Under the pieces are notes generated by a model that searched no databases, was not told the DNA's origin, and saw only the letters and a program-made list of their open reading frames with translations. Both the position numbers and the translations under genes were made by a program. Shown here piece by piece: positions 1,641-61,235 of a stretch of 64,000 bases of DNA. The first letter of the stretch is position 1; every line of letters begins with the position of its first letter. This DNA is from Leucoraja ocellata (lineage: Eukaryota): contig JAWMAR010000191.1 of assembly GCA_036785375.1 (NCBI GenBank), positions 2,170,001 through 2,234,000 on the forward strand, given 5' to 3'.

Positions 1641-1736
1641 AGATAGACACAAAAAGCTGGAGTAACTCAGTGGGACAGGCAGCATCTCTGGAGACAAGGA
1701 ATGGGTGACGTTTCAGGCCGTGACCCTTCTTCAGAC
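1641..1736 (-). mobile_element. Penelope-related short repeat with degenerate hammerhead motif
   Basis: gacacaaaaagctggagtaactcag...gacgtttcaggccgtgacccttcttcagac, the same family as 11064-11190. Confidence 0.7.
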
Positions 1737-2019
1737 CTTCTTGGCTGTCTCAGTGCATGATGATTTTTAATCATCAAACTTTCAATTGCGCAGGAAACAT
1801 CTCAACCTTTACAACTTTTGGTTGATAAATGAATGGAAAATCACAGTTGGAATGTAAATGTCTTTAGTCTTCAACTTTTAGACATTTCCAGAGCATCAAT
1901 TGAAAATGCAATTTGTGTGGTTTAACATCACATGGGCAGCAACTGTAATTTGAATGTGTATTTAAAAACTGCATTATTTGTGATAAAATGTCCTGCATCA
2001 TGCTGTTGCAGTTATAGAT

Positions 2020-2440
2020 ATATAGATACATAGATACATAGACAGTAGTTGCAGGAGTAGGGCATTTGGCCCTTCGAGCCAGCACCGTCATTCAATTAGA
2101 TCATGGCTGATCATCCACAATCAGTATCCCGTTCCTGCCTTCTCCCCATATCCCTTGATTCCGCTAGCCCGAGCTATATCTAACTCTCTTTTGAATGCAT
2201 CCAGTGAATTGCCCTCCACTGCCTTCTGAGACAGAGAATTCCACAAATTCACAACTCGCTGTGTGAAAACGTTGTTCCACATTTCGGTTCTAAATGACCT
2301 ACCCCTTATTCTTAACCTGTGGCCCCTGGTTCTGGACTCCCCCAACATTGGAAGCATGTTTCCTGCATCTAGCGTGTCCAATCCCATAATCATGTTATAT
2401 GTTTCTATAAGATACCCTCTCATCCTGCTAAATTCCAGTT
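2020..2440 (-). mobile_element. CR1 (HER1-like) LINE 3' fragment
   Basis: ORF 2121-2423 MRGYLIETY...SRTRGH...FTQRVVNLWNSL...AFKRELD, followed by a 3'UTR and a short tandem tail. Confidence 0.88.
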
Positions 2441-2934
2441 AAATTACTGTTGATCAGCCACATGTGTGTATCACTGCTGGGACCTTTGCTGGATGAGCTC
2501 TTGACCTTAATAACATTTGTGCAAAGTGCTTACGGTTGGATACCTTCAATGTTCATAGTGCAGATGTTATCTATATTGAGAACACACGCAGGATTGTTAA
2601 TGATGAGCTGTACCACCTCAGACAAGTTGAACCAGTTGATTTTCCCAACCTTTATGAAATGAAGTCACCGCCTTCTTCACTCACAGCAGCAACTTTCCGC
2701 AGAGATATTCAGAGGGCACTAATCATCTCCCCATGCGACGACAGGAAATCTTTAGATACAGAAACACAGTGCTGTATCTGTCAGGAAGGACATGGGCAGA
2801 CTACAATTCACGCTGTCAGAGTACAAATTCCGGGAACGAAAACAAAAAAACGTTGACAATATTTTTCAATGATATTTTCATAACATAAAATGATTACCTG
2901 CAAATCCATCAAACCTCTCGCACAATAGCTAACT

Positions 2935-3200
2935 GGCACAGTGGTGCAGTGGTACAGTTGCTGCCTTACGGTGCCAGAGACCCGGATTCGAACCTGATTA
3001 CGGGTGCTGTCTGCATGGAGTTTGTACGTTCTCCCCATGACCACTGGGTGCTCCGGTTTCCTCCCACATCCCAAAGACACACAGCTTTGTAGGTTCATTG
3101 TCCCTGCTGTATAAGATAGAATTGATGTACGGGTAATCGCTGATTGGCACGTACTCGGTGGGAACAACGCCCTGTTTCCATGCTGTATTTCTAAACTAAA
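2935..3200 (+). mobile_element. tRNA-derived V-SINE (HE1-like)
   Basis: tRNA-like head ggcacagtggtgcagtggt...ttcgaacc, V-domain ggagtttgtacgttctcccc...gctccggtttcctcccacatcccaaagac, and a CR1-like tail ending taaactaaa. Confidence 0.8.
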
Positions 3201-3887
3201 ATAAATTCTCAGAAGAATATCTAATTGTCCATCTGCTGTTGTACATTTTGCACTAATACTTAAAGTTAAAATTCAGAGAGCTTGCTGTGAAATTGTAGGA
3301 GTTAAAAGCTGATGTAACAGAGGATGGAGAATAAACCAGGTGTTAAGATTTCAAAGCTAGAGCAGACAAAGAGTGAAGTTAATCCCAGGAGATGTTTCCT
3401 TTATCCCTAATGAAAATAAAAAGGATTTGTAGCTGAAACCATAGGTCCGATCTTCTACTTTCATCAACAAATTAGAACGCAGCAGCAGAAATTTCTGTAG
3501 AGTTTCTGCCATTCCCTGACATAAAGTCAATGGAAACACCAGTGATATTGAGTAAACACCCAATTCACTGAGGTCTCTGCCAATTTTATGCCAAAATTAC
3601 ATTTGGAGAATTTTAATGGATGCTGATGTTTTGTTACATTTCTACTGGAGTCAATTCTTGGCTCTCAATGCGAAAGTTGCAAAGGATGTTTCCTTTTCAA
3701 AAAAAGGAGTCGTTCTTATTTTAAAGCCAAAATGAGACCAACTTAAGAGCTTCCTATGCTTCTCATGTGTCACACTCCAACTGGGTAAAATAAAAATAAT
3801 CACTCTAAGTGCACATGTTTAGCAATATTTAGATATAGACATTGTAAGTCGTGATTATATGTTAAGTCAGGATGGGAGATGTTACAT

Positions 3888-4320
3888 AGAAACATAGAAA
3901 CATAGAAAATAGGTGCAGGAAGAGGCCATTCGGCCCTTCGAGCCAGCACCGCCATTCATTGTGATCACGGCTTATCATCCCCTATCGTTAACCCATGCCT
4001 GCCTTCTCCCCATATCCCTTGACTCCACTAGCCCCTAGAGCTCTATCTAACTCTTTTTTAAATCCATCCAGTGACTTGGCTTCCACTGCCCTCAGGGAAT
4101 TCCATAAATTCACAACTCTCTGGGTGAAATTTTTTTCCTCACCTCAGTCTTAAATGACCTCCTCTTTATTCTAAGACTGTGGTCCCTGGTTCTGGACTCA
4201 CCCAACATTGGGAACATTTTTCCTGCATCTAGCTTGTCCAGTCCTTTTATGATTTTATATGTTTCTATAAGATCCCCCTCATCCTTCTGAACTCCAGTGA
4301 TTACAAGCCTAGTCTTGTCA
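3888..4320 (-). mobile_element. CR1 LINE 3' fragment
   Basis: (tagaaaca)n tail and sequence similar to 2020-2440. A 21-bp tandem duplication sits at the 5' junction (4301-4342). Confidence 0.85.
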
Positions 4321-4569
4321 ATTACAAGCCTAGTCTTTTCAATATTAGCTAACAGATGTTAAGCTTCAATGTTAAGCTAACAGATCACATATTTTCAAGA
4401 TCTATTATTGCTACATAGTTACCAAGTATCTAATTAATTTAAGTTATAGTCATATGTTGACAGCAAAGTGTACTGGAGAACATATCAGATCCCACAGATA
4501 GATTATCTGTCAAGCATTGGGAGTGTCATAGCACATGAATTTGAATTACCTATACATGTGAAATATTAG

Positions 4570-4900
4570 AATTGAACAGTAGAGCACAGGAACAGGCCCT
4601 TTGGCCCACAATGTCTGCACTGAGCACCAAGCCCAACTTATATCTGCCTGCATATTGTTTATATCCCTTCATTCCTTGCATATCCACATGCTCATCAAAA
4701 AGCCGCTTAAATGCCACTATCGTGTCTGCTTCCATCACCACGCCTGGCAGCGTGTCCAGGCCCCCACCAATATTTGTGTAAAAAAAATGCGCCAACCATC
4801 TCTTTTTACCTCTGCCCCTCTCTCCTTAAAGCTGTGCCCTCTAGTGTTTGATATTTCCATCCCAGGAAAAAGATTCTCTTGGTCTCTCTATGTATTCTAT
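4570..4900 (-). mobile_element. CR1 LINE 3' fragment (older subfamily)
   Basis: ORF 4550-4795 ...LPGVVMEADTIVAFKRLFDEHVD... Confidence 0.7.
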
Positions 4901-5049
4901 CCGGTCTCCCCAAAACCTCTGGCAACATTAGGTGACTCTATTTTCCATGTTTGGTTGACCTTTTTACAGCCTGCAGTACCAACTGGATTTCATGATCCCT
5001 CTATGATTGACTATGAATTTGGTTTCAAACCACCTGAGGTTCTGGTGCA

Positions 5050-5147
5050 GATAGACACAAAGTGCTGGAGTAACTCAACGGGCCAAGCAGCATCTTTGGA
5101 GAAAATGGATAGGTGACATTTTGGGTCGGGACCCTTGTTCAGACTGA
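5050..5147 (-). mobile_element. Penelope-related short repeat
   Basis: gacacaaagtgctggagtaactcaac...gacattttgggtcgggacccttgttcagact. Confidence 0.65.
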
Positions 5148-6474
5148 TTGCAGGGGGTTTTGAGGTTTTGGTGAGTTTGGACTCACGACATCAGTGGGCT
5201 TCACCTCGCTTCTGTTCTTATCCTCACTTCACGCTCCATTTTGTTACCACGATCCCTCCTCTGCCTAAAGGTCACAGTGAAGTCACACGGGTCACAGACG
5301 AGGATTGGCATCTTAGACAGTTCATTCGTGCTCCGCAGTATAACATTTTGTACACCTGTTTAACTTTATCTACTTATCTGCACAGACACATAGATGCAAT
5401 ACATGTACAGTTTCCTGTGCAGAAATAGCTAACAGTAAATGTAATTACAACATTGTCAAGCATGCACACACATCAGTCACAATTCTTGCCACTGATTTGG
5501 ACGTACGAAAGGCAATAATCAAAAGACATGAAACTGGCTGACAACCAAATAATTTTGATACTTCCAATTTCCCCTCTTTCTACTAGGCATATTGAGCCTG
5601 AAATCAATTAGCGAACAAAAAATACAGAAATGTTAAACTTGTGAGCCTTTCATTGCACCTTGAAGGCTGCCAACATCATGCGACATAACTGCACTTGAGG
5701 AGACCTTCAAAAAGCTTCAATGTTATTCATTTTCTCATTTGATGTAGCAGATACTAACGTATTCTTTAGTTTAGTTATTGTATTTTTGTTGTTCACTGAA
5801 CAGCATTATTGTAGTTTTTGTTGTAGTTATTATTTTTTGACTGAGGTCATAAGGTCATAAGTAATAGGAGCGGAATTAGGCCATTCAGCCCATCTACTAA
5901 TTATGTTCTTATTATTGTGTGGGATTTTGGATAGCCAGTCTCGCCCCCACATTAATTTTGGTTCCTACTGGCAATTGTTGAATTGGGGACTTATTTTGAG
6001 TAGCACAGGAAGTTCCCAGGAGGACATGTGGAGACTTATGTTGAGTTTCCCTGTTGCTGCAACTACCTGTGATAAAAGAGAAGTAAAGAACCCCAACTGC
6101 AGACTGTGTATTACCCACGGCCCAGAGTGACTGGAATAAATCTACACCAAAAGATTAACAAGTTTATGTCCATCCCCAAAATTCCCAAAAAAGAAAGATG
6201 GATCCCACGATTCGCCCAGGTGATCTCCCAGTTTTCGATCTCCCATCGCTCTCTTTCCCTCTCAATACCCACACAGCAAAGGACTTCATGTTGCGTGAAT
6301 AACACTAAGCGGCCATGAATGAAGAACTCAGATGCGGTGAAAATTGGCTACCAGGTACTGGCACCAAGTCACAAGTACAAATAGACATTTGACTCTCAGG
6401 ATAAATGTGATTTCTCAGGAAACCTGTGGTCTCCGCACATTGTGCTGCAGGATTAATGAATGTGATGAACTAGT

Positions 6475-6785
6475 TGTGTCGGAAGGAACTGCAGATGCTG
6501 GTTTAAACCAAAGATAGACACAAAAAGCTGGAGTGACTCAGCGGGACAGGCAGCATCTCTGGAGAGAAGGAATGGGTGACGTTTTGGGTTGAGACTGGTT
6601 GGGGATAAGGGAAACGAGAGATATAGACGATGATGTGGAGAGATAAAGAACAATGAATAAAAGCTATGCAAAAAAGTAACAAAGATAAAGGGGAACAGGC
6701 CATTGTAAGCTATTTGTAGGGTGAAAATGAGAAGCTAGTGCGACTTGGGTGGGGGAGGAATACAGTGAGAGGGAATGCCAGGGCA
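6475..6785 (-). mobile_element. Penelope-like pseudo-LTR fragment (longer form)
   Basis: Begins aggaactgcagatgctgg and continues gggaaacgagagatatagacgatg...aacaggccattgt, shared with 43540-43800. Confidence 0.65.
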
Positions 6786-8039
6786 CAGTTATTGCAGACA
6801 CATGAAACTGGAAAGCGACCATGTGAAAATTTGTACTTTCATCATTAATTGGTTTCTAACAAGCCCTAAGCAAGTTAATAATATTATGAGCATCTGATCT
6901 GTACATTGAACCTATTCTATCTCCAGAGGGTACAGGTGCCATTAAGACTAATGTACCTACTGTGCATTAGTGGGCTTTGTATACGTTTTCACTGTTGCAC
7001 ACAGTAACTTCAACCTCACTGAAGAGTTCATTTATAATCCATTAAAGAGGTTCAAAACGTTGGTAATGGCTGGATTTATTGTGCACCCAATACAAACTCA
7101 AGCTATTATCACATGCCCTCAAGGAGCAAGAGTCATACCCCACTGGCTTTGGCACTTACAAATTAAATCGGACTCCCACACCACACAACCACCTTCGATG
7201 CACTTCACCCAGTTGCAAATGTGACAGTGTATTTGCATCTTTTATTGAACTGTATAATATGACCATGAGTCTTGTGCAAATTTATCTTTCCTCCCATTAA
7301 TTCAAGAAACATTTTCAAACAAGTTACCAATGACAAGCCTCATCTGTTTTATCTCTTCAATTACAATAAATGCTCACCCAGTTTATATTCTTATTACTAC
7401 TTTCCAGCAAACACAATTTGGAAAAAAAAAATGAGGAAATGATAAAAGGTTAGGGCCTGAATTTCCCAGGGTGACACAAGTCTCCAACTGCGACTTCAGT
7501 AAGAGCTCAGGGAGCCAGCCCATAGTGACACGAGAATAAATAATAATTCACAACTTTGCCCCAGGGTTTTCCAGTAATCTCCTGGGAAAGAAACACTGTG
7601 TAAATTCCAGTGCATGTGGAACAAATACTAAAACCACCCGCATTGAGTCACATTTAACATCATTCTTGCACGTCCAGTAATGCCTTGATTTGGATCCCAT
7701 GGCTGACTTGAATCACCTGCAGCCCGTATCTCAGAGATTTCCCTGCATCTCGTATAAACTTTGTATATGGCTGGATGTCAACTGTTGTTTAATAAATCTG
7801 GGCTAAAATGTGCTGGGATATTTCACTATATTAAATGTACTTTGTCAATGGAAGTTGCTGGAGTTTGTAAATCTGGTTATTTCTTGTAAAAAAAAGTATG
7901 TCATGAAATGGCTTTCATCTTTGCCTGGAACAATTTGTTTTATCAGTAATATAAAATAACATTTCCTGAAGTGTGATTGTGATGCAGTTACTGTATTTCC
8001 TGTGCAGCACAAAACATTGTTAGGACAAGAAAAAGAAGA

Positions 8040-8300
8040 GAAATAAAGTGTATGCTACGTTTAAGAGGATGGAATCCTATGGGGACTTTGAGGAATACAA
8101 AGAAAGGAGGAGAGAACTTAAGCGGGTGATTAGAAGGGCTAAAAGGCACCACGAAATGACTGTCAAAGTGGATTAATCAAAATCTTAAATATTTTTATAC
8201 CTATGCTAAAAACAAGAGGGTAACCAGGTAGAAGGTAGGGCCACTCAAGGAGAAAGAAGGGAATTTGTGCTTTCAGTCCATGGATGTGGGGAATGTGCCA
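8040..8300 (+). mobile_element. Degenerate CR1 ORF2 internal fragment
   Basis: Reads ...ELKRVIRRAKRHHE...KIFYTYAKNKR...VGPL, the tether region upstream of the CR1 RT. Confidence 0.55.
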
Positions 8301-8631
8301 AACGGGATTTTTGTAGCAGCTCTATCAGCTGTGCTTCTAAACAGCCATCTATTACCTTTTGGAAGATTGACCCAAACAAGGCTACCGAGTCCTCACAGCC
8401 GTACACTGGTTCTATCCTACACACTGGGGACAATTTATAAAGCCAATTAACCTACACACCTGCACGTCTTAATCCACAAAAATGAAAAGTTTATTCCCTT
8501 TAAAAGAACTGAATTATGACTTAATTCCATTACTCAAATCAGGTAATAAACCTTTTCTGTTCTCTGTTGGAATACCTGTCAGAGGAGGCAATTGAGACAG
8601 GGACTATTGCAACAGGACAGGTTTAGAGGGA

Positions 8632-10281: not shown

Positions 10282-11063
10282 AAAGCCAGGGGCCACGCTG
10301 CCTTCCAATTCATACAATTGGATTATAGGATTGATGGGTATTGTTGCAATCACCTCACCATCAGCCTAAACATTAAAGGATCACCACAAACTATCAGTTC
10401 TCCACTATGAAATGCTCCTCTCATAACAATGCCTACTTGGGGTGTCTTTCTGAAGATTGTTTTTTTGTTGCATTCCAGCTTTTTACTGCAACTTTATATA
10501 TTGAACTTGCATATTTAAAAAAAGATTTTTCCCAAAATATTACCTGCAATATCCATGTAAGACACTTTCACATGAAGAGTATAGAATATTACACACTGAG
10601 ACCCAATGGGAAAGAAGATTGTGAAAAAAAAAAGATTGTTGTATAGTCTTATTGTGTTATTTCTGTTTACATCTACTTATTACATTTGAAAATGTAATTG
10701 TACAGCTTGTACTCAATGGATTAAGCATCCATGATTTGAAGGTAAACAGTAGAGAGCTGTTCTTTGAATACAGCAGCTATATCCCTGTAACGTTTAAAAA
10801 ATGAAAGTGCAATTCAAGTCACGAGTTTATTGTCTGACGAACATATACAGCAATGTACAGGAACAATGAAAATCTTGTTTGCAGCAGCATCACAGGTGCA
10901 TGGACTCAGACAAATACACAAAAAACAGATTGTACATAAATCAGACTTAAGCAACGCATAATTTTTCTTAAAGAAAGGAGAGTGTGCAAAAAAACAAGAC
11001 ATCAGTGCAAAATGCAATTAGAAAAAAAGCTCATGGCCGGCCAATAGGTAGACTGTAGTGTTC

Positions 11064-11190
11064 AAGAAGGAACTGCAGATGCTGGAAAATCGAAGGTACA
11101 CCAAAATGCTGGAGAAGCTCAGCGGGTGCAGCAGCATCTATGGAGCGAAGGAAATAGGTGACGTTTCGGGCCGAAACCCTTCTTCAGACT
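11064..11190 (-). mobile_element. 127-bp Penelope-related hammerhead-bearing element with 17-bp TSD
   Basis: Exact direct repeat ggtagactgtagtgttc at 11047-11063 and 11191-11207. Confidence 0.85.
11160..11187 (-). ncRNA. Minimal type I hammerhead ribozyme motif
   Basis: - strand reads CUGAAGA-A-GGGU-UUCG-GCCC-GAAAC-GUC: both conserved boxes, stem II with a UUCG loop, palindromic ACGU stem III and a GUC cleavage triplet. Confidence 0.65.
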
Positions 11191-11960
11191 GGTAGACTGT
11201 AGTGTTCTGTTGTTTTTAAGTAGCATTAAGGTTGTGCAATTTGCTTCAGGGAACTGAGAGTTGTAGGAAAGTAGCTGTCCCTGAACCTGATGGTGTGGGA
11301 CTCCTATGCCTCCTGCCCAATGTTAGCAGTGAGAAGAGGCCCGGATGGTAGGGACCAGTGATGATAGATGCCACATTCTTGATGCAGCCCCTCACTTAGA
11401 TGCCTTTGATGGAGGGGAGGGCTGGGCTGAGTCCACCATTCTCTGTAGCCTTTTGCATCCTTGTGCCATAACGGACCATGATGCAACCAGTCAGGATTCT
11501 TTCTACAGTACATCTGTCGAGGTTTGTCAGAGCATTGAGTGGTGTCAGGGTCAAAGTATTGAACAATGGACTCAGCTTGGTCCATCATGGGCACAACCCT
11601 CCCCTCCATTGAAAGCATCAAGATGAGGAGCTGCATCGAGAAGACGAACACAGAAGCCTGAAGTCCTCCACCACCAGTTCAGGAACAGCTTCATGCTGGA
11701 TCTCTTTGAACGTCCAAGAAAGTCGAGGCGCTGATGCTCTATCCTTGTGATTTGACCCAGGAAAGGTCATCTAAGATATTAACGCCCAGGAAGTTGAAAC
11801 TGATCACTCTCTCCACCATCGACCCAACAATGAAAACTGGCATGTGGTCTTCTGACTTTCCCTTTCGTTCAGAACTCTGTAGTTGCAGGAAATCTGAAAT
11901 AGAAAAATGCAGGAAGTATTCAGCAAGTCAGGCAGCATGTGTGGATAGAGTAACAGTGTT

Positions 11961-15422: not shown

Positions 15423-15570
15423 TTGATGCAGCAACAAGCAACGATAATGGCGTCAGTTGCGCAGGGAGGTTACCTGAACCCGATGGCAGCATTTGCAGCA
15501 GCACAGATGCAGCAGATGGCAGCCTTGAATATGAATGGACTTGCAGCTACACCCATGACACCAACATCAG
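15423..15570 (+). CDS. CELF4: CELF4 internal coding exon (linker/divergent domain), 148 nt
   Basis: Acceptor ttttttaactttttcaatAG (AG at 15421-15422) and donor CAG|gtatgt. Encodes [49 protein letters not shown]+G, recognised as nearly identical to vertebrate CELF4. Confidence 0.93.
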
Positions 15571-20852: not shown

Positions 20853-22793
20853 ATATGCCGCCACCCCTTCCGCTTGGTTTGCGACTGTTCCTCTTCGTTC
20901 CCACACTTTATGAGTCAGTCATATATCCTGTATGTAAATCTGGCTTTTGCTTCCTGTTCTGGACTTCGCCATCAGTGTTGACCTATCTGAAGACAGTGCT
21001 GCCAAGGTGTGAGAACGTGCCCACTACTGAAAGCCACTGACCGTTCACAAGGATGTGGTGTCTGATGCAAGCAAACGAATAAGCCGCAAACAGTTGACAA
21101 AAGAGTTAAAGAAAAGAAATGATCAAAGTTAGAGCTCGGCCAGGACAACTGCCATTTATTAAAATCAGGAATAAACATTCGTAAGAATGACAAATCACCG
21201 TTACCAGCAGACAAAGAGCAAAACATTCCTTATCCAGGAAACCTATACTAGAAACACTCAGCCAGTCAGTCAATTCTGAAGGATATTCTCCTTAAATTAA
21301 GCTTTCTTTTCTTGCACAGATGCTGCCTGACCTCCAAATGTTGCAAGCATTTCCAATATTAAAATGAGATGCACTGGCAGACTTTTCTCAGTAGCAGTAG
21401 TGCAGTGGACTTCAGCACCATCAAAGTCTTCCAAATATACTTTCTTGGATCAAATTATTGAAGAACAGATGGATGAGCTTTATGTGGGATATCTGGCAGA
21501 TTTGGGTAGAGAGGAAACAGTTCTACTTCTCTGGCATCTCCATCCACCAGAAAGATAACTGGCTCCATTGCCGGATGTAGAGCAAAGTCCATGCACCCAA
21601 ACTGCGCAGAGGCCATCCTCAACCATCAAACAGACCAACAGATTTTATGTGAGTGCTGCCTGACCCACTGAGTTACTCCAGCACTTTGTGTCTATTCTAA
21701 TTATCCTTGTTATAATGCAATTGTCAACGCATTTCTTAATGAAACTGAAGACGACTTTGTTATACTCAGTCAGGCTGGGTGAAGTGATTTTGAACATCGT
21801 CTAGTCCATGAACTCAAGGCAGACCAGACGTAAACCCTCCTCAGGCCACCACTGTATCGTTCTCTTCATTGGTGCTTTGAACTTCAGTCTCTATCTGTAA
21901 GCTGGCAGAAGCAGGTGATCAGACCAGCTAAAATGAGGTTGAGGGATGGAGCAATGGGTGTACATGGACGGCTTGATTGTAATCACGTATTGTCTTTCCA
22001 CTGACTGGTTAGCAAGCAACAAAATCTTATCACTGTACCTCAATACACATGACAATAAACTAAACTAGAGTGTCAAATCTCCGTGTGGAACTAGAGACCT
22101 GCTGATGGTATTTGAGAAGTACGTTCTTGAAGTTAGTTTGAAGCCTCCTGCTCTACAAAACATCATGCTTTTCTGTTTCCAGAGCATTGACAATTGAGTC
22201 TAATTCAACGAGTACCACTGTGGCATTATCATGTAGACCACCAACAAGAAGGTAGAGGTGAATTCCCTTGGTTGATAAAGGTGACAAAATGTTATGAACA
22301 ATCATTCCAGTTCAGGCGAGCAGAATTGATCTAAGATCATCACAACAGTGCACCAGGAAAAGACACAATCTACTGGAGTAACTTAGCAGGTCAGGCAGCA
22401 TCACCACAAAGCATTGACCAAAAAGCAGACAGCGCTGCCTTTCCCTTTTGCCTGAGGATTCCATATGGTCCATACAATAAATGGAGGAAACCTCAGGTTA
22501 TATAGCAGGGTGAGCCATGTTTCTGTGGGATATTGATGTTAGATGATCATGGGGTACTGATTTTAGATGATCAGCTATTGAATGGCGGTGCTGGCTCGAA
22601 GGGCCAAATAGCCTACTCCTGCACCTATTTTCCTATATTTCTCAGTTTCTACAAAGAACACAGCAGTCCCGGATCTTGATTTGAAACAGCAGCCTTGTTC
22701 TTTCAGCTTGTTCTCGAGTGATTGAATGTTACCTGGAAGTATGCTGGAGAAAGGGGGTACCTGGAATCCCTCAGTTTCAGCCTTACCCTTCAC

Positions 22794-23610: not shown

Positions 23611-23735
23611 CAGTCTGAAGAAGGGTCCCGACCCAAAACATCACCCATCCTTTTTCTCCAGAGATGGTACCTGACCTGCTGAGTTATTCCAGTACTTTGT
23701 GTCTATATTCGGTATAGACCAGCATTTGCTGTCTT
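23611..23735 (+). mobile_element. Penelope-related short repeat, hammerhead GAAA box mutated
   Basis: cagtctgaagaagggtcccgacccaaaacatc...ccagcatttgc. Confidence 0.7.
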
Positions 23736-24189
23736 AACTTTTGATGTATGTGCTATTAGCCACGCACATCTTTTGTGAAGCAACCACTTAAGCAAGTCTT
23801 CAAAGATCCATTCAAGCATTGCTGGACTGGAACAGAAATATTTGCACTGGCTTTTAAAAAAAACCTTCAGTAACCTTGCCCTGAAGTCTTCTAACATGGA
23901 CAAACAAACATGGACAAACAAATAATTGGTCTTTCAACATGCACTAGCATTGCCAAAAAGAACCCTTTCCAGACAAGTATGAGCATGAAGTGACATTTCC
24001 ATAACAGTTGGACAGATATCATATATATAAGGAAAGTTGTATTATTATCGCTGGCAACAGTGGGTCCATCTCCATACCTTCTCTCCAGAGATGCTGCCTG
24101 TCCTGCTGAGTTAATCCAGCATTTTGTGTCTACCCTCAAATTAAACAAGCATCTGCAGTTCTTTCCTACTCAATAAACTCAATGCATTC

Positions 24190-25400
24190 TATGTCCAATT
24201 TCAACAGAAGGCCCCTGGTGGAATGCACCCCCCCCCCCCCCAACACCACCCCCACACCCCCACCACCCCCACCACCAGTCACAGATGCACCAGTTCCAAT
24301 GGTTACTGAGGCAGGCTTAAGATCAGCCTTCCTGAGAGTGAATCCACAGAAAACAACCGGCCCGGATTGAGTCCATGGCCACATGGTGAGGACCTGTGCG
24401 GATCAGCTGGCAGAGGTATTCACGGACATCCTTGCCTTCCCACCACTCCAATCTGAAGAGCCCACCTGCTTCAAAAAGACCACTTACATCCCGTTGCTGA
24501 GGGAAAGTATGATAAGTATGCTTAATGACCACTGTCCAGTGACTCTGAGATCCATCATCATGAAGTGCTTCGAGCAACTGGCAATTATAAGCCAGCACAA
24601 ATTAAGTCATCTCTGGAGCAACAAGGACTTCTACATCAGACTCCTATTTATTGACTCAGCGGGACAGGCAGCATCTCTGGAGAGAAGGAATGGGATGCTC
24701 GACCACAGATGCTGCCTGTCCCGCTGAGTTACTCCAGCATTTTTTGACTACCTTCGATTTAAACCAGCATCATGCAGTTCTTTCCTACACACTTCCTATT
24801 TGACTATAGCTCTGCCTTCAACACTGTAATCCCATCTAAATTCATCTCCAAACTCCATGATCATGGAATCAGCTCTCCCTTCTGACACTGGATCCTCGAC
24901 TTTCTGATCCACTGACCTCAATCGGTGAGGATATGTTACCGCACCATCTCCACATTAAATCTCAACACATTAAATGCCCCACAAGGATATCTTCTCAGTA
25001 CAATGACAAGACGGAGTGCAGGAAGGAGACGGAGAACTTAGTAATATGGTGTCAGGACAACATGCTCTCCCTCAATGTCTGCAAAATGAAAGATCAAGTT
25101 ATTGACTTCAGGAATAATGATGGAGTACATGCCCCAAACAGCATCCATGGTACTGATGTCTGAAATGGTTGAGAGCTTCAAGTTTCTTGGCGTTAATATC
25201 AGCAATGATCTATCATGGGCCAACCACATTGATATGACAACCAAGAAGACACACACACATCTACTTCCTCAGGAGAGTGAGGAAACTCAGCATGTCTCCT
25301 ATGACCCATACAGATGCACTGTAGAAAACATACTGTCGGGTTGTGTTTGGCAACACCCCTGATTTACACCAACACCTCCACTTCCTGAGGAGACTGAGGC
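24190..25400 (+). mobile_element. Rex1/Babar-type LINE RT fragments with a nested Penelope-related insert
   Basis: Peptides RVNPQKTTGPD, TCADQLAEVFTDI, IMKCFEQL, RLLFID..SSAFNT, WCQDNMLSLNV and FKFLGVNISNDLSW. The insert is at about 24654-24792. Confidence 0.85.
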
Positions 25401-26030: not shown

Positions 26031-26162
26031 CAGTCTGAAGAAGGGTATCGACTAGAAATGTCGCCTATCGATGTTCTTCAGAGATGCTGCCTGGCCCGCT
26101 GAATTACCCCAGCACTCTTGTGTTTTTTTTTTTTGTTGTAAACCAGCACCTGCAGTTCCTTG
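26031..26162 (+). mobile_element. Penelope-related short repeat just upstream of the CELF4 exon
   Basis: cagtctgaagaagggtatcgactagaaatgtc...ccagcacctgcagttcct. Confidence 0.7.
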
Positions 26163-26241: not shown

Positions 26242-26391
26242 GCGGGAGCACACCTCCTGGTATCACCGCACCAGCCGTGCCTAGCATTCCTTCTCCAATT
26301 GGAGTAAATGGATTTACCGGCCTCCCCCCACAGGCTAATGGACAGCCCACAGCAGAAGCCGTCTTTGCCAATGGAATCCATCCCTACCCAG
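26242..26391 (+). CDS. CELF4: CELF4 next internal coding exon, 150 nt
   Basis: Acceptor tgtgtttcAG (26240-26241) and donor CAG|gtacac. The phase-1 join G+GC continues the previous exon: [50 protein letters not shown], matching CELF4. Confidence 0.93.
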
Positions 26392-27949: not shown

Positions 27950-28172
27950 CCACCCTTGTTTGATCATCATTGGCTTTGATCTGTTCTTTTCACACTTTAC
28001 GTGTTCTCTATACCATTCCATATCTTGTTTCCCTCTCTCCAGTCTGAAGAAGGGTCCCAACCCGAAACGTCACCCATTCCTTCGCTGCAGAGATGCTGCC
28101 TGTCCCACTGAGTTCCTCCAGCATTTCATGTCTATCTTCAGTGTAAGCCACCACCTGTAGTTCATTCCTACA
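27950..28172 (+). mobile_element. Penelope-like pseudo-LTR fragment
   Basis: Pyrimidine-rich leader, then the hammerhead motif, then agagatgctgcctgtccc...tgtagttc. Confidence 0.7.
28044..28071 (+). ncRNA. Minimal hammerhead ribozyme motif, sense to CELF4 pre-mRNA
   Basis: CUGAAGA-A-GGGU-CCCA-ACCC-GAAAC-GUC with an intact core. Confidence 0.6.
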
Positions 28173-30255: not shown

Positions 30256-31057
30256 TCCACATGGGGATAACAATAAGAGGACAAACTGGGTCGGATAAGC
30301 TCTTGGAGGGGAGAGGAGGTGGAGAAAGAAAGGGAGAGGAAGAGGTGCAAGGAGAGACGAGCACCCTGCAAATCTGTGATCCATGATCCAGATCCCTCCA
30401 TTCCCTGTATATCCATGTCCCTATCTAAAAGCCTCCTAAACACCACCATCTTATCTGCCTACACCAGCAGCCATGGCAGTGTGTTCAAGGCAACCATACA
30501 TTACGTGAAAAGATGAGTGCACTCCTTACACATAAAGTGTAAAATAATGTGCCACTCAGCTCCTTTAAACATTGCCTCTCTTGCCTTAAAGCTATGCCCT
30601 CAAGTTTGTGTCTTGTCACTAAACAATGTGTGAGATTATATGCTTCAGTAAACATCATCACAGAAATAAAAACAGAACAATCTGGAGATAGAAGGTCAAA
30701 CGGTATCTGTGGAGAGAAAAACGTATTTAACAATTCAGGTCGATGATCTTTCATCAGGTTTCAAACATCTGCAGTTTTATGCTCCCCAATAACTCCACTG
30801 AAATTCGCCATCTGCTGCCATTTACAGCTCAGCTACAAACTCAGAGCTTCGTACAATAACTGTGACAGAGCCCATGACTCTCTCTTCAGTCAGCCACATC
30901 TTCTATTTACCACCAGTGTTTCACAGTGGCCTTTATTCAATGATACCCTCTATCTGAAGGAAAGTTCAGTGGAGTTCACTTTTTATGGAGTCCTGACTAG
31001 ATTTCACCCTTTTTGCCAAATAGCAGCCGGTTTCATGGCATTGCACATTTTACTTTA

Positions 31058-34203: not shown

Positions 34204-34306
34204 AAAACGTTGCCTATTTCCTTCGCTCCATAGATGCTGTTGCACCCGCTGAGTTTCTCCAGCTTTTTTGTGTACCTTCGATTTTCCAGCATCTGCAGTT
34301 CCTTCA
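34204..34306 (+). mobile_element. Penelope-related short repeat truncated inside the hammerhead
   Basis: aaacgttgcctatttccttcgctccatagatgctg...ccagcatctgcagttccttc, near-identical to the reverse of 11064-11165. Confidence 0.75.
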
Positions 34307-35704: not shown

Positions 35705-35890
35705 ACACAAAAAGTCTGCAGATGTTAGAATCTTGAAAAGCCAACTGCTGGAGGAACTCAATGGGTCAGGCAGCATCCATGAAGGATAATGGACAGTCGA
35801 TAATAGTATGAAAAGGGTCCTGACCCAAAACATCATTCATTTCCCTCCACAGATGCTGTCTGATCTGCTGAGTTCCCCCAGCTTTTTCGT
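35705..35890. mobile_element. Inverted pair of degenerate Penelope-related repeats
   Basis: ctgctggaggaactca..gggtcaggcagcatc followed by gatgctgtctgatctgctgagttccccca. Confidence 0.6.
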
Positions 35891-36142
35891 TTGCAGTCAT
35901 TGTCCAACATATACACTACTTATTTTTGTTTCTCTTGCCATCTTAATTCTGGCATTCATATGGTTTTCAAATGTAGAGAAAAGTTTGTTTGTTTTTATAA
36001 ATTTGATTATGACCTTTTCCACTGATTTGAGGACACATGATTAATGTCATTGGCAAAAGAAACAAAAGCAGCATTAAGAAAGAAATTAGTTATCAACAAG
36101 CATTTATCATGTGGACTGCGCAGGTTGCAGCTTTGAAAACAG

Positions 36143-38700: not shown

Positions 38701-39014
38701 AGTGGCACAGTGGCCCAGCGGTAAAGTTGCTGTCTTACAGAGCACCTTTGTTCGATCCTGATCACAGGTGCTGCCTGTACGAAGTTTGTCCATTCTTCCC
38801 ATGACTGCGTGAGTTTTCCCCAGGTTCTCCAGTTTCCTCCCACATTCCAAAGACATACAGGTTTGTAGGTAAATTGGCTTCGGTAAAAATAGTAAATTGT
38901 CCATAGTATGTAGGATAGTGCTGGTGTAGGAAGATCGCTGGTCGGCGCAAACTCGGTGGGCCGAAGAGCAGTGTTTGCACGTTGCATCTCTAAACTAAAC
39001 TAAACTAAACTAAA
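38700..39014 (+). mobile_element. V-SINE (HE1-like)
   Basis: gtggcacagtggcccagcggta head and a (taaac)4 tail at about 38991-39013. Confidence 0.85.
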
Positions 39015-39110
39015 AGGTACACAAAAATGCTGGAGAAACTCAGTGGGTGCAGCAGCATCTATGGAGCGAAGGAGATAGGTAACGTTTCGGGCCGAAACCC
39101 TTCTTCAGAC
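39015..39110 (-). mobile_element. Penelope-related short repeat with intact hammerhead core (39081-39108)
   Basis: - strand reads CUGAAGA-A-GGGU-UUCG-GCCC-GAAAC-GUU. It abuts the V-SINE tail. Confidence 0.75.
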
Positions 39111-39299
39111 CCAATTGACTGCTAAACGACCTTTTTTCAATGCATCTTTCATAAGATCACAAGATCATAAGTGATAGGAGTAGAATTAGGCCATTCCATC
39201 CATCAAGCTGGGGTTTAAAGTATCACGGATGTCTTAAATGTTTGTTCTTCGAACACCCATTTTGCGGAGAAACATTGCAGAGAAACACTTAATTCTCAT

Positions 39300-43090: not shown

Positions 43091-43539
43091 ATAGAATTGA
43101 GACCAACATGAGTAAAAATTCCAGTTTCCCCCATTGGTTTTCATCATTACATTTTATCAAAGGAGAGATTCCCTCCTTTAATGCTTCCATCATATGAACA
43201 TATATGAAAACTGCGCACTCCAAACCGTTGTTTAATCGTGGTCCAGGAGGTCAGAAGCAGTAAATCTCTTTTTAAATTTCTACTATCTTTTATAAAGCTA
43301 TTCAAACTTCTTATATGAAGAACATAAAAATTTAAACAATGATGTTGTCACATTTGAAACAGCAAAAATCTGGGTGTCAATCCTAGTATTTTTGTAGTCA
43401 ACTGACCTCAATGTTATAGTGAATCCATCTAACTATTACCTCTGAGTCCGGATCATCTTTTCTCCTAGCGCATCCTGCCAGGTGTCATTTATATTTCGGG
43501 TCTTGGCGGTGACCTGGGTGTTAATAAGAGAAATAAAAG

Positions 43540-43932
43540 ATAGACACAAAAAGCTGGAGTAACTCAGCGGGACAGGCAGCATCTCTGGAGAGAAGGAATG
43601 GGTAATGTTTCGGGTTGAGACCATTCTTCAGGAGTCACGGGGAAGGGAAACGAGTGATATAGACGATGGTCTAGAGAGATAAAGAACAATGCATGAAAGA
43701 CATGTAAAAAAGTAACGATGATAAAGGAAACAGGCCATTGTTAGCTGTTTGCTGGGTGAAAACGAAAAGCTTGTGCAACTTGGGTGGGGGAGGGATGGCC
43801 TGAAGAAGGGTCTCGACCCAAAACATCACGCATTCCTTCTCTCCAGAGATGCTGCCTGTCCCGCTGAGTTACTCCAGCATTTTTCTGTCTATCCTCGGTT
43901 TAACCCAGCATCTGCAGTTCCTTCTGACACAA
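43540..43932. mobile_element. Penelope-like inverted pseudo-LTR pair
   Basis: A - strand copy (43540-43795) is followed by a + strand copy (43800-43932). The arms gctggagtaactcagcgggacaggcagcatctctggagagaaggaatg / cattccttctctccagagatgctgcctgtcccgctgagttactccagc are complementary. Confidence 0.8.
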
Positions 43933-45788: not shown

Positions 45789-45857
45789 TAACTCTTTCAG
45801 TTTCTCCAGCACTCATTTTTTTTTTACTTTACACTGAGGTAAAATAAACATTGGAGG

Positions 45858-46150
45858 GCACAAAGTATTGGAGTAACTCAGCGGGTCAGGCAGCATCTCT
45901 GGAGTAACACGGAGGGGTGACATTTTGGATCGGGATCTGCCTTCAAGTCTGAAGAAGAGTCCCGACATGAAATGTCACCCCCCCATGTTACTCCAGAGAT
46001 CGGACTACTCCAAGTCTTAAGAAGGGTCCTAACCTGATATTCCACCTTTTCCATGTTACTCCAGAGATGCTGCCTGACCGGCTAAGTAGTAACTCTTTGT
46101 TACACTTGTGTCCTTTTGTGTAAACCAACATCTGCAGTAAACCAGCATCT
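45858..46150. mobile_element. Rearranged inverted/tandem Penelope-related repeats
   Basis: One - arm, then two tandem + arms each containing ccatgttactccagagat and a degenerate hammerhead box. Confidence 0.65.
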
Positions 46151-46887: not shown

Positions 46888-47200
46888 ATGAATATTGATT
46901 TCTCCAACTTCAAGTAACTCTTGCATTCTCTCACTCTCCGATCCTCCCCTACTCTAGTCCTCTTGCTAATTTCGCCGTTCGTATTCCTTCATTATCACCT
47001 CGTCCCCAGCCAACAATGGACCATTGTGGGCTCCACATTTCCTGAGTCAAAAGATTCTGCTTTGTTCTGTACCTTCCCTACCTCCAGTGTCCCCCTCCCT
47101 AACTCCCAGCCTGATGAAGGGTCTAAACCCAAACATCACATATTCCTTTTCTCTAGAGATGCTGCCTGACCCGCTGAGTTACCCCAGCATTTGTGGCTAT
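46888..47200 (+). mobile_element. Penelope-like element 3' end (ORF terminus plus pseudo-LTR)
   Basis: MNIDFSNFK* at 46888-46917 resembles the end of the Penelope GIY-YIG ORF (recalled). It runs into ctgatgaagggtctaaacccaaacatc...gatgctgcctgacccgctgagtt. Confidence 0.55.
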
Positions 47201-49939
47201 CCATTCTACGAGTAGTTGCAAAGAGGGATGGGATGCCAGTTCTGTAACATTCTTAACCATGGAATTTTCCCTTCTGTTTCTGTTGTTGAGGGTTCAGTGG
47301 TAGTCCAGTCTATTTGGCCCATCACCTCTTATTCTGGATCTAGCCTGTGGTCCATGTCACGTATAGACAGGACACAGTCACAGCCTTTTAAGTTTCCTCC
47401 AAACCTCTGCTAAGAACACTCCTAGTCTCAACCTGTATGATTGAGCATTTAACATACCTTCTCGATTCAGCATTGTTCATTCAAGGCACAGACCACTTGT
47501 TTCCAAAATGCATTAGTTAATGGGTCAGTTGTGCCTCTGCAGCCAAGAAAGACACAGATGGAAAATGGCATCGTAACTGTGGCCACTCAGAATGTTCTTC
47601 GCAGGTGCTATTGCCCAAATTCTATTAAGAACAAAGATGAGTGGAAGGGATATAAATATCTGAGCACAAAGGGGAAGGGAAAGTTTATGGTAGCTCCACA
47701 AGTCCCCAGGAGTTTGAACGAAATGATGCCCATCTGTAAGCTCAGCAGGATTTGACTCAAAATATTGCTTACATATCTATAAATCAAAACTAGCGTGAAT
47801 ACACTGAAGTACTTCATCTCATAACAAATTTGAAAATTATTCTGTGAACAAATTAGCATAATGACTTGGTGGGAGAGAAAAGAAAAATGCTCAGCACATG
47901 CAGTTTTTTAAGTGTTGCTAGTAGCATGAACTTTGTTAGACTACATTATATGTTTGATTATGATTTTGAACATTTATTCTAAGCATTACATTGTTAAATT
48001 ATTTAAACACGTTATGTTACTTAAATTATCAGCTTGTTTACAAAACATTTGTCACTTACATACCATTTCTTACTTGCTCCTATCATGAACAATAGGCTGT
48101 GTGTTCGTAAGGTTGTTTTTATGATTGTGTATTCTTATTAAATGAAAAAAATAAGCAAAGAAGAAGGCCTTTTCTGTGGGCTAATTGCATTGCTGTTTAA
48201 AGTTAGCTTAGCATAGAAAGTCCTAGTATCACCCCATTTCCACAGTGTTTTGCATTTATCAGCTCAGCATACTTGAGAGATGACTAGAGTGCTAAGAACT
48301 CATTCACTTTTATCAACGCAAAGTTTATAGAGGCAACTTAGTGTTGTTTTTGTTGCAGTTGCACAGACTTGCAGCAATACATTTTGAGGTGTTTCTCCAC
48401 AAAATGAGCATGACATTTCTGCAATGCCGCTGCAGGCAGTTGCCCAGTGAAGGCCAGGTAATTCCCCCACAGTGAGTAGAAGACAAATTGAAATGGTGGG
48501 ATGAAAAAGTTTCATTTGAGTAAAATCAGTGATCGGGGGTAGATCTCCTTCTCAGAAGTATCCCCTTACCTTATTTTACTAGAAAGCAAGAAAAGGAGAA
48601 GAATGGTACTTGCCTCTGGCACATTAACAACTAACAGCTGAGCAGGACATAACAGGAGCCCTCGAGGCCCCTGTACCTACAATTTGGCAAAGAACGGAGG
48701 TGACAGGGATTAGGGCTGCAAATAGCTTCTAGGTCAATATATGAATAGCACCGATGTGAAGTAAGCCATGAGGCTGTTGGTCAGATATATTTTGTTAATT
48801 TGCTATGATAGGCCAATTTGTGTACTCCTTAAAGGGCTAAGAGTAATGTGTTTGTACCATCTAAAATCTAGCACAGTGTTGCACAACATAAATTAGCCCA
48901 CAGGCTGGAATGTGGCCTGTTGGATCATTACAATTGGGCCCTCAATGCACTTTCTAATTATTCCAAAGGGTCAGCTCATGAGTGGTCTCCAGAGGCCAGG
49001 CAGGACGTTTCATCCGGCCCGCGATGTGCTCTATTGTTATTTACTAGAGCCGGCTCACCAGTCCTCCCAATCGCTCAGACGGGAGATGAAAACTCCAACC
49101 AGATGTGGCACACAGTAAGCTCCGTCTGCACGCACGGTGAGTGTCCACCATTAGAATACCCTTCAAAGTGCGGTTGTCCTGGGCCATTTGAGGCTTTTAC
49201 TGCCACTGAACGCATCCTGCGCTCAGCCGCAGCGGCTGATCAAGAAAAAATTGCAATCCCAAAGATCGAGGAAGTTGGGCACCACTACACGACATATCTA
49301 GAGTAAAAAATATATCAGTTATCATTATAGTGTGAAGAATAGAAACAAATGGGCTCCCAGTCGATACAATTAATCTAAGATGTGCTACCACACTGTCAAT
49401 GCAATCACATCATTAAAAAGAATTACATAGCTAAATTGACCAAACCTTTTGTGAATTGTTGCCCAGCACCTGGCTAAACATTACATGGTTTAAAAATATT
49501 TCAAACAAATACAGATTCTGTCGTAGTCTCCCGAATCACCTCAGAACATCCAAACAAGTAAGCTATCCTACTGTTTATTTGCTTTACCAAAACATTATTA
49601 TTTTTTTAATTTTAACTCAAATTAATTGTAAATTTAGTCCAAAATATAAGGGAAAAAATTCTGTATATTCCCCCTTTCAGTTGAAAATGCCTTTGATAGA
49701 CTACAATGATTTGAACAGAGGGTCTCTCTAATAATTTTTTTTTAAAAACAAGCGCAGAGATTCAATGGTATATTAGTTTATTCAGTGTAATGCAACTCAA
49801 AGTCATGTTTTTTTTCTCGGGAATGTAACAGGATGATGATCCTATCCAATTATTCTCATGTAACTCAATACATTTGAACAGGCACTTCTTTGATGAAGGG
49901 TATACTCATTCCCAATACAGTGCTCTGATGGAATATTTA

Positions 49940-54889: not shown

Positions 54890-55340
54890 CCTGGAACAAA
54901 GAAACAGATTGCTGGAAGAACGCAACAAGTCAAATAGCATTGGTGGAGCTAAAGGGGGAAGTCAATATTTTGGGTCGAGATTCTGTATTGGCTGAATTCC
55001 AGATTCCAGCATCTGCAGAAACAAGGAACTGCAGATGCTGATTTACAACAAACAAAACACAAAGTGCTGGAGTAACTCAGCAGGCCAGGCAGCATCTTGG
55101 AACGATATGGATTGGCGACGCTTCGGGTCAAGTCCTTTTTTCTGAAAAAGCGTCCCAACATGCAACATCAACTATTCGTGTTCTCCAGATATGCTGCCCG
55201 ACCTGTTGAGTTACTCCAGCATTTGTGTCCTTTTTCGAGCATCCGCAGTCTCTTTTATCATCATGGATAAAGAGATGTTCCTGACTTACTGAGTATTTCC
55301 AGGATTTGCAGTTATAATTTCAGATTTCCAGTATCTGAAA
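54890..55340. mobile_element. Cluster of nested/inverted Penelope-related repeats
   Basis: aggaactgcagatgctg...gctggagtaactcagcagg paired with cctgttgagttactccagc. The hammerhead boxes are degenerate. Confidence 0.65.
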
Positions 55341-59216: not shown

Positions 59217-59219
59217 TGA

Positions 59220-59403
59220 GACAAAAAATGCTGCAGTAACTCAGCACGTCGGGCAGCTTCCCTGGAGAACATGGATAGGTGACGTTTCAGTTCGGGAGGG
59301 CCAACCCAAAACATCACATATCCATGTTCTCCAGGGATGCTGAGTTACTGCAGCATTTGGTGTCTTTCCTTGGTAAACCAGCAACTGCAGTTCCACATTT
59401 CTA
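59220..59403. mobile_element. Collapsed inverted Penelope-related pair
   Basis: aatgctgcagtaactcagca..ccctggagaacatggata / tatccatgttctccaggg..tgctgagttactgcagcatt. Confidence 0.7.
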
Positions 59404-59574
59404 CAAGTAAATAAAGTTATCTTGCAGATGGGCCAATGACGGAAGGAAAAAAGAGTAACAGTAAAAATCCCATCCAAGATCTAACCAATCTAGCTTTCAG
59501 CATCTAACATTTGTCCCTGAAACAGGCAGGCATTATCATTTCATGGCAAACTGGAGTCCTATGACTTTATTTGA

Positions 59575-60255
59575 TATCAAGTATCAAGTATCCTTTATTG
59601 TCATTCAGACTTTTCAGTCTGAACAAACTTCGTGCCTTGCAGTCAAAACATAGAATAAAATAACAAAACACACAATAAACACAGATTTAACATCCACCAC
59701 AGTGAGTCCACCAGGCACCTCCTCACTGTGATGGAAGGCAAAAGTCTTAAAGTCCTTGTCTCTTCCCTCCTTGTTCTCCCTCTGCTCTGAGGCGATCCAG
59801 GCCTCCGATGTTGTGACCCCGCCGGGTGATGGTAAGTAAGTCCCGCGGCTGAATCCGAGCTCCGCGAACGGGCCGGTTCAAACTACGCGGCCCAGGGCGG
59901 TCGACGCTGCCGAAGATGCTGCCCTCCAGTCCAGCGGACGAAGCTGTAGTTGCGGGAGCTCCAGAAAAACAGGTCACCAACCTGTGACCTGCGAGCTCCC
60001 GACGATGTCGTCTACTGGGCCCGCGTCCGAACCTCCGAGGCTTCAAAGTCAGGTCGCCGCCGCCGCAACTCCGCCACAGCCCCGAAGTCGGCCAGCCCCG
60101 CATTGGTAAGTCCTGGCTGGCTCTGCCTCTGGAGCCTCGAGGTTGGTCCCAGTTGGAGGCCGCCACCTCCGCCATTAGGCCTCAGCCTAGACAGAGACGA
60201 AGACGGGGGATACGACAAGAAAAGGTCGCATCCCCCCGAAGGAAGAGACCAAAAA
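59575..60255 (-). mobile_element. CpG-rich non-autonomous element with Rex1-like tail
   Basis: (tatcaag)2 tail, ctttattgtca, a hairpin tccaccacagtgag/ctcactgtgatgga (59693-59735) and a GC-rich body. Confidence 0.65.
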
Positions 60256-61039
60256 CATATTAGGAATGGTACATCCATCCCACATACACCTATATATCTT
60301 GCCATTTTAACTTAACTTGGTGGACAATTTAATCTGATGTGTTGAACACCAAATTCCCCAATTCTTCCTTTATATCATCACCTAAATCCATTTTGCGTCG
60401 CTCCCCCTGCAAATGCAACCCCTCAATGTTTTTCCTACTTCTAGCATTGTCCTCCTAGCTGCCTTCCAGCTTTCACCCATATAGATCTGACCTCTTACAA
60501 AACTCTGCTGCCAATATACTAATTCATACCAAATCATATTCAGGGATCGATTATCCCTGCCGTGATCCATTCCCATGCCAGCAATTACTCAATTTCAAAT
60601 TTTATGTCATGTCTCTAAACTTCTCCATGGTCTTACACCTTCTTGCTACTATAACTTCAATCAGATTCAGAGCATTGCAAAAATCCCCTGAAATTCTGCC
60701 CTCATCGAAGCACCATTGACAACCACACATTCATTTGCCCTGGCAAAATCTCTTGAGTCAAATCTCATGTCCCAAACTGGTCTAATTCTGTGCAGGATGC
60801 CCCAAAGGTGACATCAAGTGACTTTAAAATATGCTTTGATCCTACTCCAGCGCTTGGATGACACCATCCAAGGAGTAAAATAACTATTAATGCAAAAGCA
60901 TACGCTGACATGGTGTCTCAGCTGTGCCTTCCATTATTTGATGCATGAAATCACTGAACAAAGCCATTCTGGTAATTGTTGCTCAGGATGGGAAGGTGGG
61001 AGAGTGTAGCTTGTCTTTGTCTTTTATGAAATTTAGTTT

Positions 61040-61235
61040 TCTCCTGAGTTGTGCAGCAGGATTTGTTCTAGTCTTTTCACTCTTCCAGTTTATCCCCCCT
61101 CCCCACCCCCTCCCCTCCCGACTGAAGAAGGATTCCAACCAGAAACGACACTTGCTCCTTTTCTCCGGAGATGCTGCCTGGCCTTTGGTTACTCCAGCAT
61201 TATGTGTAAACTAGCATCCACAGTTCCTTCCTACA
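61040..61235 (+). mobile_element. Penelope-related repeat (degenerate)
   Basis: actgaagaaggattccaaccagaaacgac...gagatgctgcctg...ttactccagcat. Confidence 0.6.

Follow-up and report, generated by a model that had tools for sequence, protein, structure and literature searches.

Short dispersed copies of a Penelope-like pseudo-LTR end with a minimal hammerhead motif in a skate genome mostly share a 5' edge in front of the motif

Among Penelope-like elements (PLEs), minimal hammerhead ribozymes have an extra base after G8/N9 as a hallmark (PMC4209133). For the anole PLE named PAc, reverse transcription is described as starting at two internal sites that bound the tail, with uncut RNA as the main template and hammerhead cleavage that needs protein (PMC11167929). 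The Penelope element of D. virilis has an internal promoter with initiator (Inr) and downstream promoter element (DPE) motifs (PMC2377424), and a rotifer pseudo-long terminal repeat (pseudo-LTR) carries an Inr-like TCACT (PMC3846280). A CX2-5CxxC linker finger and a CCHH motif are marks of the PLE clades Neptune and Nematis (PMC8557442). Our literature search found no report of an elasmobranch hammerhead ribozyme; sharks and skates are absent from one supplement file of PMC4209133, and the "shark" of the review PMC6155905 names the hammerhead shape. Here we analyze a 64-kb stretch of the skate Leucoraja ocellata (contig JAWMAR010000191.1:2,170,001-2,234,000 of a 3.44-Gb assembly), called the window below, in which a short unit with a hammerhead motif recurs within the gene CELF4. 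We estimate a probability of about three in four for the explanation as a whole, namely that the unit is a pseudo-LTR end with a minimal hammerhead, that its copies decay neutrally and that they originated by internal priming and copying back to the start of the element RNA.

A hidden Markov model (HMM) of the unit, seeded with 11 window copies, was applied to the window, to the reversed window and to a genome sample of 120 stretches of 10 kb (1.2 Mb), drawn at round-number positions from the 118 largest contigs. The window has 40 matches at E ≤ 10, with 30 at E < 1e-3 (15 on each strand), and the best match in the reversed window has E = 1.8. The unit is about 95 nt long, or about 130-135 nt including its tail. 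In the genome sample, 577 matches cover 49,204 bases (4.1% of the sampled DNA), while the reversed control of the first 60 sample stretches gave none. Extrapolated to the assembly, this amounts to about 1.6 million unit fragments, a rough figure because one insertion can yield two matches, only the largest contigs were sampled and paired matches suggest uncollapsed haplotypes. With 481 matches per Mb in the sample and 469 per Mb in the window, CELF4 is not enriched in units; their location there is incidental, at the genome-average density and without strand bias.

The unit is linked to a coding element. Two of the ten genome loci first collected have the end of a GIY-YIG open reading frame (ORF) directly upstream of it. 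A peptide search with this ORF end, in which the best 150 of 190,617 candidates were scored, returned 30 loci (including the query locus, and with at least three pairs that look like duplicates), and in all 30 a unit lies on the same strand 88-150 nt past the aligned ORF end. Longer ORF stretches have open frames of 499-815 codons. The 815-aa frame, at locus L061, matches RVT_1 (E=4.7e-6) and then GIY-YIG (E=9.8e-4), the order of a reverse transcriptase (RT) with a C-terminal GIY-YIG domain, and its translation reads a CX4CxxC linker and two cysteines inside GIY-YIG. On the 5' side, nine of 11 loci show a unit plus tail continuing into the ORF 5' end, the other two being without output. Three of these nine 5' ends follow the ORF end of an upstream copy, four start 1-3 nt before the CUGA box of the hammerhead (two of these elements are near-duplicates) and two start inside the unit. 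A unit plus tail before the ORF and a unit after it is the standard pseudo-LTR arrangement. Taken together, the unit is very probably the pseudo-LTR end of a Neptune-type PLE, and its copies are very probably fossils; the clade is a putative assignment by motif, with marks common to Nematis. An earlier note on this DNA had proposed about 20 Penelope-related repeats on both strands, abundant in this lineage and forming a separate non-autonomous family. The unit is present at 13 of the 13 positions it listed and the abundance is confirmed, as is the Penelope origin through the 30 ORF loci. The number should be raised to the 30 fragments reported above, and the separate family is not supported: the unit belongs to the end of a larger element with its own RT/endonuclease ORF, and no sequence specific to short units was seen. 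In one subfamily (5' pseudo-LTRs of L077, L078, L081, L085, L089 and L095), we observed a frame that stays open for 53 codons, from just past the UGA of the CUGA box to the first AUG.

In the majority sequence of the unit, the hammerhead reads CUGAAGA and an additional A, then a 4-bp stem II capped by a tetraloop, then GAAA, CG and UH, and the family has G10.1-C11.1 and the palindromic 15.2-16.2. This majority sequence and a descriptor search in which stem I pairing was optional bear out the earlier reading as a minimal type I hammerhead in which ACGU forms a loop-less stem III and CUGANGA is followed by an additional base. The descriptor found 59 matches in 1.2 Mb, in comparison with 1, 0 and 0 in Markov controls and 0 in the reversed control; by eye, 58 of the 59 belong to the unit family, and the density is about 48 core-intact motifs per Mb. 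Counting a core as intact when every core base and ACGU are kept and stem II has at least 3 bp, we found intact cores in 4 of the 18 window copies that span the core, at 1734(-), 11187(-), 28044(+) and 39108(-), and in 25 of 189 copies in 600 kb of the genome sample plus the window. The earlier note had named three of these four; the one to be added, 1707-1734(-), keeps all core bases, its first stem II pair being G-U instead of G-C. A cG>cA change in the GAAA box, which the note had called frequent in decayed copies, is present in half of them (5/10). An Rfam scan of the window matched none of the hammerhead families at E ≤ 10. The Rfam matches to MIR820, mir-196 and psbJ were rejected as palindromic repeats far under gathering scores, and a permuted type III alternative, cutting at AUC ahead of AGU, was rejected by eye, as 16.2 would not pair with C15.2. 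The antisense strand of the unit has no conserved CUGANGA (by eye). As a separate observation, the CUGAAGAAGG core may pair with the C/U-rich stretch just 3' of the cut site (28044-28101 and other copies), an alternative fold that would block the hammerhead.

Decay of the motif was assessed in the 264 of 577 rows that span the core region. Loss of G12 affects 59 of 253 rows, versus 155 of 760 for the three other CpG Gs compared (44/258, 60/249 and 51/253; p=0.33), and non-CpG core bases are intact in 94.1% versus 93.4% elsewhere (p=0.26). The hammerhead core decays at the neutral rate; broken in most copies, the motif is likely inactive here.

The boundaries of the copies were studied in 424 of the 577 matches, those that reach the 3' part with a score of at least 40 and full flanks, with positions given relative to CUGA. 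Their 3' ends fall into two clusters, about +88-99 and about +126-133, which are the tail boundaries. The rate of 5' ends per base is 0.007-0.014 more than 15 nt upstream, 0.037 at -15 to -8 and 0.079 at -7 to 0, then 0.024 at +1 to +9, 0.016 at +10 to +19 and 0.002-0.007 at +20 to +59, so that 283 copies start between -7 and +19. The hammerhead cut site has no peak of 5' ends among these copies: the rate at the predicted site is 0.0068 per base, and that at -7 to 0 is about 12-fold higher. Most copies begin at or just inside the front edge of the hammerhead, and this edge likely marks the RNA start of the element. Four of the nine long elements start at the same edge, where RNA and DNA runs of related organisms also have loose ends. 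RNA reads of related organisms show no peak of beginnings or ends in the unit (the libraries are not 5'-end libraries, and 78-96% of the placed reads run into other sequence), and no RNA set was listed as containing the element stretch.

Anchored on the CUGA box, 211 copies comprise 45 with an upstream untranslated region (UTR), 96 without, 65 that abut an inverted copy and 5 in tandem. Only the last 5 lie head to tail, with a direct copy no more than 160 nt upstream, and the genome was not searched for arrays elsewhere; in the inverted pairs, the second arm is variably shortened. The bases TCAGT in front of CUGA are 84-93% conserved in the UTR-bearing copies despite their unlike UTRs, and stem I uses only the GU. 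In the 96 copies without a UTR, A-G-T is kept at 71-86% (A and G at 71% each) and the C at -4 at 47%, with base composition equal to background from -5. Target-site duplications (TSDs) of at least 9 nt flank 16 of these 96 copies, which lack upstream homology, versus 0-3 in 20 shuffles (mean 0.75). A wider set, for which the search was limited to 0-14 nt and in which some 9-mers are due to chance, has such TSDs in 29 of 306 copies, 26 of which end no more than 6 nt from CUGA.

These ends could be explained if RT primes inside the RNA, in which case the two 3' clusters would correspond to the two internal priming sites demonstrated in vitro with the anole PLE. If synthesis began in the 5' pseudo-LTR and extended to the RNA 5' end, exactly the 95- or 135-nt unit would result; a start in the 3' pseudo-LTR would give UTR-bearing and long copies, and starts from both nicked strands would give the inverted pairs. 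We consider it probable that the hammerhead left the template RNA uncut; cleavage by the master hammerhead, after GUC/GUU, would require dimerization or the element protein. Our best guess for the RNA 5' end is a predicted RNA polymerase II (Pol II) start at TCA(+1)GT, with the G-T-C at +29 to +31 as a DPE-like element. Since the latter would sit on the GUC, the same 35 nt would be promoter and ribozyme. We give a promoter as the cause of the 5' boundary slightly less than an even chance. The fuller proposal is more doubtful and is offered tentatively: a 35-nt hammerhead that doubles as a Pol II core promoter, with the roughly one million short copies as complete cDNAs of the first 95-135 nt of uncut RNA, made by internal priming, that rebuild the pseudo-LTR.

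Several observations weigh against this explanation or parts of it. The 5' peak is broad, with 129 of the 424 copies ending at +1 to +19, and the count at -7 to 0 is possibly inflated by UTR types outside the 28 references and by low-complexity, pyrimidine-rich UTR. A copied cap might leave a G at -4, yet G is not in excess there (18% versus 12-23% in the background). The DPE match is only 4/5, scored with the consensus and spacing that we take to hold for Inr and DPE. In D. virilis, the promoter is described upstream of the intron and hammerhead, not on the hammerhead as proposed here (PMC2377424). On the coding side, both Pfam matches of the 815-aa ORF fall below the curated cut-offs, and no uninterrupted full-length ORF was seen, so that the element is at most a candidate for present activity. 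As to the ribozyme, stem I is as weak as the earlier note had it, with 2 bp in the family (2 bp in 31 and at least 3 bp in 9 of the 59 descriptor matches), and the 5-bp stem I of copy 39108(-) depends on target DNA at its flank. In monomer folds the core is sequestered, with probabilities of 0-0.14 for stem II and 0 for stem I. No stem II pair has two-sided changes in more than 8 of its several hundred rows, and subfamilies differ there only by U-A to U-G. With a 2-bp stem I, such monomer folds and scarce covariation, cleavage activity of the family is only predicted. The earlier note had regarded missing stem II covariation as refuting; the absence is observed, and the ribozyme reading is not thereby refuted because dead copies of a few masters decay without selection.

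A hot spot of stalling or template switching comes close to a promoter start in likelihood, although it too is short of an even chance. It would be ordinary 5' truncation, without a promoter, in which RT stalls or switches template when leaving the folded hammerhead region at the C/U-rich UTR and the end joins by microhomology to target DNA or to an inverted copy. The reach of the 5' peak to +19 and the missing cap G suit it, as do several TSDs that overlap the first bases of the element. It leaves the conservation of TCA across unlike UTRs unexplained, copies that pass -15 continue with a low end rate, and RT stalling would be expected on the 3' side of a hairpin. More generally, frequent 5' truncation and inverted junctions are described throughout PLEs (PMC8557442; PMC3846280), in keeping with a stall. 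The related possibility that the edge is a 3' splice site, a pyrimidine tract plus CAG as at the D. virilis hammerhead, with short copies made from spliced RNA, is improbable. UTR-bearing copies do show a C/U-rich tract followed by CAG, and the D. virilis intron ends at helix I (PMC4209133); against this, copies without a UTR retain AG (71% each) with no shared upstream exon, and no splice joint occurs among the RNA joints listed (143 more are unlisted, and the libraries are low-depth ones of relatives).

We regard as unlikely, though less so than splicing, a self-propagating non-autonomous family of the short interspersed element (SINE) or retrozyme type, in which short units would be transcribed alone and copied in trans by PLE protein. 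Discrete TSD-bounded units at very high copy number are in its favor. Against it, the short copies are by eye of the same sequence types as the ORF-linked ends, direct tandems are limited to 5/211 and the T and C of TCAGT are lost in many copies. By eye, no RNA polymerase III B box was matched in the unit. Precedents exist in pseudo-LTR-derived vertebrate retrozymes, present in one chondrichthyan (bioRxiv 10.64898/2026.07.22.740005, whose supplements may cover the skate family), and in the rotifer, where pseudo-LTR sequences suffice in trans (PMC3846280). That some copies are active or domesticated ribozymes cutting CELF4 pre-mRNA is very improbable: the intact sense-strand core at 28044-28071 would fit, yet it has no second in the window, stem I is 2 bp in the family, the hammerhead fold is not favored, and the copies decay neutrally without strand bias or enrichment. 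Nothing points to a role of the units in CELF4.

The kind of element is already in print, and the CELF4 copies look like neutral fossils. Because about 4% of the sampled DNA is one short end, its junctions form a large natural record of the transposition mechanism, which is still poorly understood in PLEs; the value of the copies is statistical. That 5' ends do not peak at the cut site is consistent with in vitro work in which the ribozyme is dispensable for insertion. The fixed 5' edge is the part worth following, as it bears on PLE transcription start and pseudo-LTR rebuilding. If the hammerhead is a promoter, the short copies would map start and priming sites genome-wide and would answer how pseudo-LTRs regenerate.

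Two plus-strand CELF4 exons lie inside the window and two more about 5 kb and about 29 kb beyond its end, so the unit copies (Table 1) are intronic, as the earlier note had stated. The second exon has 98-100% identity to most matches listed, and the named matches are CELF4; among the matches listed in a search for RNA recognition motifs, none is inside the window. The repeats are real and very abundant and belong to a known kind of element; as regards CELF4, they are ordinary.

Table 1. Unit copies and host gene exons in the window (strand "." marks compound features)
Feature	Positions	Strand	Evidence
Unit, core bases intact (1707-1734), starts 3 nt before CUGA	1629..1737	-	HMM, core check
Unit, decayed core	5040..5146	-	HMM, core check
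Unit with pyrimidine-rich upstream UTR and tail, without CUGAAGA box	6501..6595	-	HMM
Downstream copy of 17-nt direct repeat flanking the 11064 unit	11047..11063	-	
Unit with tail, intact core (11160-11187), TSD-bounded	11064..11190	-	HMM, core check
Upstream copy of 17-nt direct repeat (TSD plus microhomology) flanking the 11064 unit	11191..11207	-	
Old 3' fragment	11903..11948	-	HMM
CELF4 exon (host gene context)	15423..15570	+	exon search
3' fragment without hammerhead	21654..21701	+	HMM
3' fragment without hammerhead	22357..22402	-	HMM
Unit, G12>A by CpG decay	23611..23718	+	HMM, core check
3' fragment without hammerhead	24073..24144	+	HMM
Two 3' fragments, inverted head-to-head pair	24654..24764	.	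HMM
Unit, decayed stems II and III, about 105 nt upstream of second CELF4 exon	26031..26136	+	HMM, core check
CELF4 exon (host gene context)	26242..26391	+	exon search, identity to named CELF4
Unit, intact core (28044-28071), the window's only intact core on CELF4 sense strand	28040..28148	+	
Old diverged unit	30667..30758	-	HMM
Unit beginning in GAAA box	34204..34285	+	HMM
Decayed inverted pair	35741..35895	.	HMM
Unit, intact core (39081-39108), GUU cut triplet, 5-bp stem I via flanking DNA	39006..39111	-	
Inverted pair: - copy with about 165 nt upstream UTR joined to + copy starting at CUGA, both decayed	43531..43905	.	
Decayed inverted pair and tandem partial copy	45850..46087	.	HMM
Decayed unit	47107..47211	+	HMM, core check
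Old - fragment and inverted pair, decayed	54896..55237	.	HMM
Inverted pair starting within stem II	59219..59376	.	HMM
Unit, decayed stems II and III	61119..61218	+	HMM, core check

The copy at 28040 recurs with its flanks at about 97% identity on the same contig, about 320 kb away on the opposite strand (L002, G000:C191:1878905-1882005); part of CELF4 is thus either segmentally duplicated or present as an uncollapsed haplotype. Elsewhere in the window, a palindromic element of about 300 nt at 45493-45791, likely a miniature inverted-repeat transposable element (MITE), is the source of the spurious MIR820 match, and there is a run of 183 Ns at 51809-51991. Many 3' fragments of long interspersed elements (LINEs), which we take to be CR1-like from peptide motifs, occur in both orientations (2019-2442, 8612-9567, 12329-12868, 31266-31597, 32556-32934, 41560-42131, 50337-50737 and 62646-63578), with 32556-32934 and 50345-50723 being 94% complementary over 379 nt.

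A GIY-YIG family search of the genome returned another PLE family, not the unit-bearing one. We also observed a second, young PLE family with near-identical 759-aa RT/GIY-YIG ORFs in tandem arrays (L074:1736-5844, G000:C353; also L075, L023 and L025). Its pseudo-LTR (L074:1585-1665) holds a full type I hammerhead, a form less usual in animal PLEs, with a stem I of 7-8 bp and a stem III of 5 bp plus an 11-nt loop. As the minimum-energy fold of that segment, this hammerhead is predicted to cut as a monomer; its z-score is 0.0, and a variant at L074:7941-8021 folds otherwise. A 637-aa frame before the RT/GIY-YIG ORF has a weak GDSL/SGNH match (E=0.0035); esterases are known in fish Neptune-like PLEs (PMC5408684).

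In comparison with the published PLE minimal hammerheads (PMC4209133), the skate motifs share the location in the pseudo-LTR, the conserved core, the extra base between 9 and 10.1, G10.1-C11.1 and the palindromic 15.2-16.2, and in both cases most are single dispersed motifs from truncated PLEs, with opposite-strand pairs. The 4-bp stem II of the skate family differs from those described there, and its stem I of about 2 bp compares with 4-5 bp in Schistosoma and 2 bp in D. virilis. The density of about 48 core-intact motifs per Mb stands beside 4,000-9,000 per genome published with a different descriptor. Animal non-LTR retrozymes (bioRxiv 10.64898/2026.07.22.740005) are likewise small non-coding hammerhead sequences from pseudo-LTRs, but they form tandem arrays, whereas the skate units are dispersed monomers or inverted pairs and include the front edge of the hammerhead rather than begin at the cut site. 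With PAc, a Poseidon element of Anolis (PMC11167929), the skate family has in common two 3' end clusters that bound the tail and no sign of cut RNA as template, the findings on PAc being from in vitro work and those on the skate from sequence alone. The PAc ORF begins at stem II, and the skate subfamily described above is likewise frame-open from stem II on; the skate family belongs to another clade and has no AUG at stem II, the first being 53 codons on. In coding capacity and arrangement, the family is like the Neptune-clade endonuclease-containing (EN+) PLEs (PMC8557442), which have the same RT, CX2-5CxxC linker and C-terminal GIY-YIG with CCHH and the same partial tandems, inverted 5' copies and optional tail of 30-40 bp, and from which the present family differs by its extreme excess of 95-135 nt ends.

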